DNA of 64,000 nt from positions 329,196-393,195 of the forward strand of contig CAZKQW010000001.1 in the NCBI GenBank assembly GCA_964555055.1, in the 5' to 3' direction. The position numbers and the translations under genes are program-made. Of this stretch, positions 62,304-62,876 are shown in pieces; position 1 is the first letter of the stretch; every line of letters starts with the position of its first letter. The notes beneath the pieces were generated by a model, which was not told where the DNA came from, searched no databases, and saw nothing but the letters and a program-made list of their open reading frames with translations. This DNA comes from an uncultured Pseudomonadota bacterium (lineage in GTDB: Bacteria > UBA10199 > JACPAL01 > GCA-016699445).

Positions 62304-62876
62304 TTAAGCTCTGAAGTTACGGGCGATACTGACCTCAGTATCTGCCTTCGTCTTGAGAAGGTTGGATCGCGCTTGATAGTCACGGCTTAAATTATTAACT
62401 GTGACCTGAGCGACCAACATTTCCCAATTAGCGTCGTTCATTTCCCGAAATAACTGCTCCCGATACAATGTATCTTGGGTCACACCTCCAGCCCCACCGG
62501 GTATCGTATTCCCAACTCCCACCCCACCCCCTGGGGAAGTCCAAGAAAATTGCCCTGACCCTGGAGCATAAGTCGCCGTACTCAAGTTCGTAGGAACACC
62601 TACAGAAGCAATGGAGGCCGTTGAACTTGAGTAATAAGGAGCATTGCCCCCATACCCCCCTAACGGGTTGGTGTAAGCATTCGTCGCTCCGACCATTCCA
62701 CTGACTGCCGCACTGGTCACGGCTCCAGAGCCTCTATTCCCAACTTCTGCGGCCTGAGGAGCGGCACTTGCTCCTACCGTACCCATAAAATCTGCGAAGT
62801 CCTGGGCTGTATTCGCTTTTTTCCTCTGACTCGATTGCGATTCCCTTAAGTTAGGATCAATTTGTGTGACCGGCAT
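62304..62876 (-). CDS. sctF: needle-subunit-like protein (SctF-type C-terminus) with long Gly/Ser-rich N-terminal extension
   Basis: GAGGAG RBS. C-terminal 'NWEMLVAQVTVNNLSRDYQARSNLLKTKADTEVSIARNFRA' parallels MxiH/PrgI '...YRNAQSNTVKV.KD.DAAIIQNFR'. Confidence 0.6.
   Translation of the reverse strand: MPVTQIDPNLRESQSSQRKKANTAQDFADFMGTVGASAAPQAAEVGNRGSGAVTSAAVSGMVGATNAYTNPLGGYGGNAPYYSSSTASIASVGVPTNLSTATYAPGSGQFSWTSPGGGVGVGNTIPGGAGGVTQDTLYREQLFREMNDANWEMLVAQVTVNNLSRDYQARSNLLKTKADTEVSIARNFRA

Follow-up and report, generated by a model that had tools for sequence, protein, structure and literature searches.

The window analyzed here is a stretch of 64,000 nucleotides (nt), in which all positions are counted unless another locus is named. 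It carries, on the minus strand at 62304-62876, a gene of 190 codons plus a stop that starts with ATG and belongs to an unannotated protein family. With modest confidence, we propose that the product of this gene is a divergent filament subunit of the needle or pilus type, kept unpolymerized by a tetratricopeptide repeat (TPR) chaperone and belonging to a secretion system of type III (T3SS). Such a protein would be of a known kind in a new variant, namely a family without annotation whose members are filament subunits related to needles, in a T3SS intermediate between flagellum and injectisome; we found no description in the literature of an SctF-like gene in systems of this sort.

The protein, its family and its likeness to needle subunits

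The C-terminus of the 190-residue protein reads ...NWEMLVAQVTVNNLSRDYQARSNLLKTKADTEVSIARNFRA. In an ungapped alignment it has S, N, K, D, N, F and R in common with PrgI, and the pattern Q...S-N-x-x-K-x-x-x-D...N-(F/M)-R at its extreme C-terminus is that of SctF needle proteins of the Inv-Mxi-Spa type (PrgI, MxiH, BsaL; PF09392, TIGR02105). Profile-profile comparison with hhalign placed this resemblance, which the first-pass annotation had noticed from the sequence alone, above chance (P from 1e-5 to 7.9e-5 with the larger profiles). A narrow C-terminal profile matched seven typed needle sequences at P=2.9e-4; the PrgI sequence used matched 2lpz_A over residues 1-80 at 166 bits. An 89-sequence C-terminal profile matched 17 non-redundant PF09392 database proteins with a score of 25.8 (P=7.9e-5, probability 61%), and the alignment ran from query columns 20-59 to needle columns 47-87 and reached the last residue. 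With a broader profile, A5, the 17 database needles were matched at P=5.2e-5 and the seven typed ones at P=1e-5 (probability 82%). The stretch aligned is the extreme C-terminal 33-40 residues of the protein against the C-terminal helix of the needles, which lines their channel. As controls we used 200 full column shuffles of the template, 200 shuffles of its last 45 columns and the reversed template. The full shuffles scored 9.8 +/- 2.1 (maximum 16.0), the last-45-column shuffles reached at most 21.8 and the reversed template gave 9.8; the real score was matched in none of the 400 template shuffles and none of 150 query shuffles, and lies ~7.7 standard deviations over the column-shuffle mean. 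The resemblance extends to one of the two needle subgroups: A5 matched the PrgI/MxiH subgroup alone at P=4.9e-5, whereas the YscF/PscF subgroup alone gave P=0.21. In library scans of 22 and of 44 relatives, needle models were the sole family to recur outside the noise, but for only one or two members. From these comparisons we consider homology of this one helix with the needle C-terminal helix to be probable. Searches of the PDB, both sequence to profile and profile to sequence, gave nothing above noise (profilin, CoREST and a phage tube protein), whether the query was the protein, its full alignment or the C-terminal one.

The gene itself is real, full-length and constrained, and not a chance open reading frame (ORF); the extent, length and C-terminal sequence that the first-pass annotation had given it were correct. 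A strong Shine-Dalgarno sequence, AGAGGAG, lies 6 nt 5′ of the ATG (62883-62889, minus strand). A search of 5.8 billion proteins returned 47 homologs across the full length, mostly of 170-195 amino acids (aa) and 37-80% identical, every one of them from metagenomes or metagenome-assembled genomes (MAGs) and none with a Pfam domain. The best-conserved part is the needle-like C-terminal helix (residues 134-190; 62307-62477, minus strand), and the C-terminal 57 residues are near-invariant among the homologs. An AlphaFold2 model built on the 47-sequence alignment has a single confident helix at residues 134-189, continuous and with a predicted local distance difference test score (pLDDT) of 67-87; weak short helices are predicted at residues 8-38 and 53-64, and pLDDT falls below 50 at residues 31-131. 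The N-terminal region (residues 1-133; 62478-62876, minus strand) is rich in Gly, Ala, Ser and Thr and predicted to be disordered. Over residues 1-132 its composition is 17% G, 14% A, 12% S, 9% T, 8% V and 7% P, these six together making up 67%. Its earlier description as a low-complexity extension holds for composition and predicted disorder, but the region also contains the motifs MPxxxIDP, DFxDF, AVTSAAxSG and NAPYYS, and positions F27, A56, G60, P80 and Y81 are kept in at least 90% of homologs; the most variable stretch is residues 91-133. Against the 80%-identical copy in MAG CP064976.1 (locus L005), codons 1-141 gave a proportion of synonymous differences (pS) of 0.74, a proportion of nonsynonymous differences (pN) of 0.13 and a dN/dS of ~0.04, with pN at 0.06-0.07 in codons 1-90 and 0.25 in codons 91-141. 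By this comparison the N-terminal region is under strong purifying selection. The first-pass annotation had also considered an internal start that would give a normal product of ~80 aa; N-terminal conservation in the 47 full-length homologs and the dN/dS of ~0.04 therefore exclude such a start on evolutionary grounds and support translation of the whole frame. The copy in L005 (10001-10571 of that locus, from a long-read MAG) has two frameshifts in the region of the C-terminal helix and is annotated as a truncated protein of 147 aa; since the coding sequence continues in other frames, these are probably assembly errors.

The wider family was delineated by an exhaustive profile search of 1.84 billion representative proteins, which yielded 47 clusters at 50% identity. 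With P0081 as the one exception, the matches of these clusters reach the very C-terminal residues of each protein, and lengths run from 44 to 393 aa, most of them 150-200 and several 81-133. The hallmark of the family is a C-terminal helix ending ...SN(I/L)LKxKxDxExNxxRN(F/M)(R/K)x, with the longer consensus N.(M/W).ML.LQ..VQ..SR.F...SN(I/V)LK.KHD.E.NAIRN(M/F)(R/K). A profile of the first 45 residues of the long forms recovered distant long members at E=1e-13 to 1e-6; because this module is shared by such distant proteins, the long N-terminal region is old and conserved within a large subgroup rather than a recent accretion. The same profile did not detect the 81-aa forms (E about 2). These start M-x-I-x-x-I-D, and we had considered that the extra residues of the long forms might have been inserted centrally, after an N-terminal segment common to both forms and before the helix; this idea was dropped since the long-form N-terminal profile misses the short forms. 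A further large protein search with a broad C-terminal profile returned 12 short family members only, none with a needle domain, and no bridging sequence was found. For 12 family members we traced the source, which was in each case a metagenome or MAG and in no case a named Myxococcus. No paralog from the family was found within the window. Two further sequences, at 3144-3614 of L010 (P0058, E=1.7e-10) and 9969-10688 of L013 (P0084, E=2.3e-4), combine the family C-terminal motif with signal-peptide-like N-termini, and no T3SS genes or TPR partner are in view near either. No Pfam or NCBIfam model exists for the family; with 47 clusters among 1.84 billion proteins, it would merit a model of its own for genome annotation.

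Gene neighborhood, promoter and secretion machine

The gene lies between sctD and sctJ, the position of sctF, beside small candidate chaperone genes. All of its neighbors are on the minus strand. Upstream are a 103-aa ORF (63026-63337) and the 3′ part (63345-64000) of a gene for a 719-aa SctD-like protein with an FHA/YscD cytoplasmic domain, TPR and PEGA domains; the 5′ part of that gene is beyond the end of the window and the whole of it is in L001. Downstream are a 136-aa protein of three TPR repeats (61891-62301), a candidate chaperone for the C-terminal helix of the 190-aa protein, and the inner-membrane ring lipoprotein SctJ (60830-61894). The order SctD-like protein, ORF of ~100 aa, family member, TPR protein of ~136 aa and SctJ is found in the window with L001, in L002, L003/L004, L005, L006, L007 and L011, and in part in L008. 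In L009, from Candidatus Schekmanbacteria, an 81-aa member lies between a 105-aa ORF and a 138-aa TPR protein, and the trio adjoins genes for a sigma factor, SctJ, a FliG_C-like protein, FliH, SctN and SctO; in L012 a 108-aa member is followed by a TPR gene. The trio of ~100-aa ORF, family member and TPR protein is kept in every T3SS-linked relative examined, and in 10 of 10 loci that are T3SS-linked or paired, the TPR gene comes directly after that of the family member. Where the target protein is 37-41% identical, the TPR protein is 63-69%, the sigma factor 72-80% and SctJ 51-56% identical, so that the protein as a whole evolves faster than its neighbors (51-80%) while its C-terminal helix is near-invariant. 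This combination of a fast-evolving protein and an invariant helix is as expected of an exposed polymer subunit.

The order sctD-E-F-G...J is that of Yersinia (yscD-E-F-G) and Chlamydia (cdsD-E-F-G), and the locus resembles both in its succession of SctD with an FHA domain, small ORF, needle-like gene and TPR gene. The positions of the two flanking ORFs were as first described, and the yscE-yscF-yscG layout proposed for them stands as far as gene order and its conservation across loci go; it does not extend to the sequences of the flanking proteins. The 103-aa ORF occupies the position of sctE, a co-chaperone elsewhere, and is 42-45% identical among four loci. It has no family match and no YscE or CdsE similarity, and its match to SctX is weak (E=0.09). 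The 136-aa protein is a canonical consensus TPR, and a search of the PDB with it returned generic consensus TPR proteins. Its best secretion-specific match is to the CdsG model NF052304, at 36.3 bits (E=5.4e-9) against a cut-off of 170, followed by LcrH_SycD at 34.4 bits and SctY at 25.2 bits (E=1.9e-5). For the two remaining TPR proteins of the locus, by contrast, LcrH_SycD gives 80 bits and CdsG no match.

A candidate promoter of the sigma-28 type, GCAACT-N17-CGATAA, lies upstream of the gene at 62972-63000 (minus strand) and is the sole perfect match in the window; CGATAA is the sigma-28 -10 element. In six related loci (L002, L003, L005, L006, L007 and L011) this promoter motif recurs 43-95 nt 5′ of the ATG with its 17-nt spacer unchanged, and variants with a 15-nt spacer are present in L009 and L012. 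Only three sites in the whole window have at most one mismatch to the motif. One of these, GCAACT-N17-CGATAT at 60770-60798 (minus strand), is a second candidate promoter, 22 nt 5′ of a 131-aa ORF (60352-60747), and is conserved in L002, L003, L004 and L006. It heads two small ORFs followed by the gene for a sigma factor of the FliA/WhiG family, encoded within the T3SS locus (59053-59889, minus strand). Either of the small ORFs, of 131 and 117 aa and without a family match, may encode an anti-sigma factor. The remaining one-mismatch site (20871-20899, minus strand) falls within an unrelated ORF, well away from the T3SS locus, and probably matches by chance. Just past the predicted -10 element, near the predicted 5′ end of the transcript, is a stem-loop, GGAGAGUUU...AAACUCUCC (62936-62961, minus strand). 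A hairpin is found at this place also in L002, L003, L005, L006, L007 and L009, with a sequence that differs from locus to locus, and it may stabilize an abundant mRNA; an Rfam scan of the window gave no match. Together, the promoter and the sigma factor suggest the regulatory logic of flagellin, in which the sigma factor of the locus would use the promoter of the gene.

The remainder of the machine follows SctJ on the minus strand, in the order two small ORFs, sigma factor, SctI-like ORF, FliG_C-like ORF, SctL, SctN, SctO, FliK-like SctP, FliM-like and FliN-like proteins, FliO, SctR, SctS and SctT. The SctI-like protein of 178 aa, a candidate inner rod (58509-59045, minus strand), matches its models weakly (TIGR02497, E=0.002; PF17001, E=0.0065). 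The genes from the FliG_C-like protein, which has 295 aa and occupies the sctK position, through SctT cover 50476-58502 (minus strand). No sctU gene follows SctT; SctV is encoded ~9 kb upstream, in L001. Past SctT come several unannotated proteins and the two TPR chaperones of the LcrH/SycD class. With the window and L001 combined, the core set of SctD, J, I, Q, R, S, T, V, N and L is complete and accompanied by LcrH-like chaperones. The ATPase of the locus exceeds both relevant cut-offs (FliI_clade2, 647 bits; SctN, 633 bits), FliO is above its curated cut-off, and SctR and SctL score higher on injectisome models; by these model scores the machine looks like an intermediate between flagellum and injectisome.

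A proposed filament subunit and rival readings

Our model for the protein is as follows. The FliA-family sigma factor of the locus would transcribe the gene from its dedicated sigma-28-type promoter, as with flagellin. In the cytoplasm, the 136-aa TPR protein, possibly with the 103-aa protein, would cap the C-terminal helix and thereby block polymerization. The unfolded subunit would then be exported through the SctRSTV gate, and the C-terminal helices would pack as the inner wall of a hollow filament, with the Gly/Ser/Ala-rich N-terminal region of ~130 residues on the outside. Export, chaperoning, polymerization and the topology of the N-terminal region we infer from homology and synteny, with the PrgI/MxiH needles and YscEFG/PscEFG as models. 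The role of inner rod appears to be taken at this locus by the SctI-like ORF, which we count in favor of a filament.

Among known proteins, the subunit would work most like SctF or a subunit of the Hrp pilin type, yet it falls outside SctF by HMM (hidden Markov model) threshold, size and hairpin. Unlike the SctF proteins, which have 80-89 aa, it lacks the PxxP turn and is extended at its N-terminus by ~130 residues that have their own motifs. The Hrp pilins (HrpA, HrpY, HrpE) have a conserved C-terminal polymerization region and a variable, exposed N-terminal part, and the present protein is similar in its conserved C-terminus and fast-evolving remainder; it differs from them in being longer and in belonging to another type of secretion system, and only one family member matched the HrpA model, at just E=0.014. 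Long filament subunits have precedent in the Hrp pilins and EspA, and the earlier view that a needle subunit with a large surface-exposed or lumen-filling extension would be structurally unusual was overstated. The likeness to flagellin (FliC) is in the dedicated promoter with a CGATAA -10 element, the FliA-family sigma factor and the conserved ends with a variable middle, and the machine resembles flagellar systems in keeping FliO, a C-ring of FliM/FliN type and a FliK-like protein. On the other side, Pfam gave no Flagellin_N or Flagellin_C match for the protein, the -35 element is GCAACT and not TAAA, SctJ, SctD and SctO are present, and no rod, hook or motor genes are in view at the locus.

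Several observations weigh against a needle-type filament. The first-pass annotation had proposed needle-family profiles as a check, with the lack of a significant hit as refuting, and the standard profiles indeed gave none: Pfam gave no match to the whole protein at E<=1, and TIGR02105 aligned with the last 58 residues (model positions 36-72 of 72) at 13.5 bits (E=0.072), below its cut-off of 41.7. The weakness of the curated models is not decisive, because PrgI as a query of the PDB finds YscF at only E=3e-5 and misses PscF. In addition, the similarity is limited to one helix and to needles of the PrgI/MxiH type. The needle fold was likewise not borne out, as the helix-turn-helix hairpin of needles was predicted neither for the 190-aa protein nor for the 81-aa relative, for which AlphaFold gave one long helix (36-80) and a helix of 7 residues. 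Foldseek returned no match with either of these models, because each is essentially one helix. At least two family members (P0058 and P0084) have apparent Sec signal peptides and are outside T3SS loci. The Secretin and Bac_export_2 models detected no secretin or SctU among the ORFs tested in the window and L001 (~74 kb), and the locus may have no outer-membrane conduit. Finally, a 285-aa ORF at 43517-44374 (minus strand) also has a needle-like C-terminus. Its last ~88 residues align over the whole needle, with LDxIxxxL, KASSDMSLISQ.LQKSLS against KNPSNPQLLAEYQSKLS, and TIIQNWKQ against AIIQNFR. As a single sequence in hhalign it gave P=0.0017 and a score of 22.0, against a shuffle maximum of 21.5 (none of 150 shuffles scored as high). 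It lies between the LcrH/SycD-class TPR chaperone genes at 44382-45017 and 42863-43471 (~80 bits each), had no relatives in a metagenome scan, and could encode a tip-like or second axial protein.

This second needle-like sequence bears on the reading that the 190-aa protein is a second-tier filament or sheath subunit like EspA or SseB, or an adaptor, on a needle made of another protein that is encoded elsewhere or related to the 285-aa ORF. EspA and SseB are T3SS-exported and polymerize through their terminal helices, and the 192 aa of EspA are close to the 190 aa here; moreover, SctU is presumably encoded elsewhere and the locus is to that extent incomplete. We nevertheless consider this reading rather unlikely, as no EspA-family Pfam match was found at E<=1 for the protein and 44 relatives, the gene is at the sctF position with a CdsG-like TPR partner, where both genomic position and chaperone type differ from those of EspA/SseB, and the 285-aa ORF is between LcrH-class chaperones, the usual site of tip and translocator genes. 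In addition, no other ORF with a significant match to needle profiles or the family motif was found in the window or within 10 kb on either side in six related loci, so that no canonical needle gene is at hand there. A protein that is mostly disordered with one C-terminal helix might instead be a secreted regulator, for example a FlgM-like anti-sigma factor that would bind the FliA-family sigma factor of the locus up to its own export, or, with the TPR protein as its YscY-like chaperone, a YscX-like gatekeeper or early substrate. Transcription of flgM is also sigma-28-dependent, in keeping with the promoter and the sigma factor of the locus, and the weak matches of the TPR protein to SctY and of the 103-aa ORF to SctX point the same way. 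This we regard as unlikely: the protein matched neither FlgM (Pfam and NCBIfam, E<=1 to 10) nor the YscX family (Pfam and NCBIfam scans), its profile-profile similarity is to needles, the TPR protein matches CdsG above SctY, and better-placed candidates for an anti-sigma factor are the two small ORFs that share a transcript with the sigma gene.

The lack of a secretin in ~74 kb, and a locus composition that matches the published description of T3SS* (PMC10433427), would also suit a periplasmic, rod-like axial part in a machine that has no secretin, like the Myxococcus T3SS*; the protein would then form a short internal structure and not an external needle. In L009 the SctI-like protein (4506-5042, minus strand) weakly matches the C-terminal profile of the family (E=0.014), consistent with rod and needle proteins being known relatives. 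Three points make such a part improbable: the locus already has an SctI-like gene, and the 190-aa protein itself matched no SctI family in HMM scans; an appendage of 130 disordered residues per subunit would be hard to fit in a basal body; and the LcrH-class chaperones and candidate translocators suggest contact-dependent delivery. It could be argued, lastly, that the resemblance to needles arose by convergence or chance and that this conserved, T3SS-associated protein has another function, given that only 33-40 residues of an amphipathic helix are concerned, that HHalign probabilities were 61-82% and not above 95%, and that no structural match was found. Against this stand the distance of the score from the column-shuffle mean, the anchoring of the alignment at the C-terminus and the independent agreement of the genomic position, and we hold coincidence to be very improbable.

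If the protein is a filament subunit, it has consequences for a class of T3SS regarded as needleless. The T3SS* of Myxococcus comprises SctD, J, I, Q, R, S, T, V, N, L and LcrH-like chaperones without a secretin (PMC10433427), and that of Myxococcus xanthus is treated as needleless (PMC10433427, PMC12075869). Abby and Rocha (2012), who described the 'Myxo' non-flagellar T3SS (NF-T3SS), argued that the earliest-branching NF-T3SSs have lost SctF (PMC3459982). By these published descriptions (PMC10433427, PMC3459982, PMC12075869), the locus in the window has the same composition; the difference is that the Myxococcus systems are reported without a needle homolog whereas the present locus has a needle-like gene. 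It is conceivable, and we put it forward only tentatively, that the secretin-less Myxo/T3SS* class has a filament subunit that standard profiles miss, and that the family is a surviving intermediate between flagellin and needle, driven by sigma-28 like flagellin and combining a large exposed region with a needle-type C-terminal helix. In that case a filament would have been built by the ancestral non-flagellar T3SS. The view of T3SS* as needleless leaves open how substrates exit from the cell, and the present gene, which is needle-like, paired with a chaperone gene, preceded by a sigma-28-type promoter and located where sctF would be, is a concrete candidate to seek in such systems. The gene also makes it testable whether the ancestral injectisome had a filament that was regulated like flagellin.

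Other genes of the window

Between SctT and the LcrH/SycD-class chaperones, at 45113-50322 (minus strand), four low-complexity proteins without annotation are encoded, with lengths of 372, 281, 458 and 535 aa; M(E)LWG opens each of the first three. The 458- and 535-aa proteins have a common C-terminal domain of ~150 aa (31% identity), and all four are candidate secreted substrates or translocators. Farther from the T3SS locus, at 29063-33725 (minus strand), is a PrkA/DUF444/SpoVR triad. Adjoining the T3SS locus, at 38826-42858 on the plus strand, are genes for a Ser/Thr kinase that bears five PEGA domains and for a sigma-54 activator that includes an FHA domain; PEGA and FHA domains are also present in the SctD-like protein.

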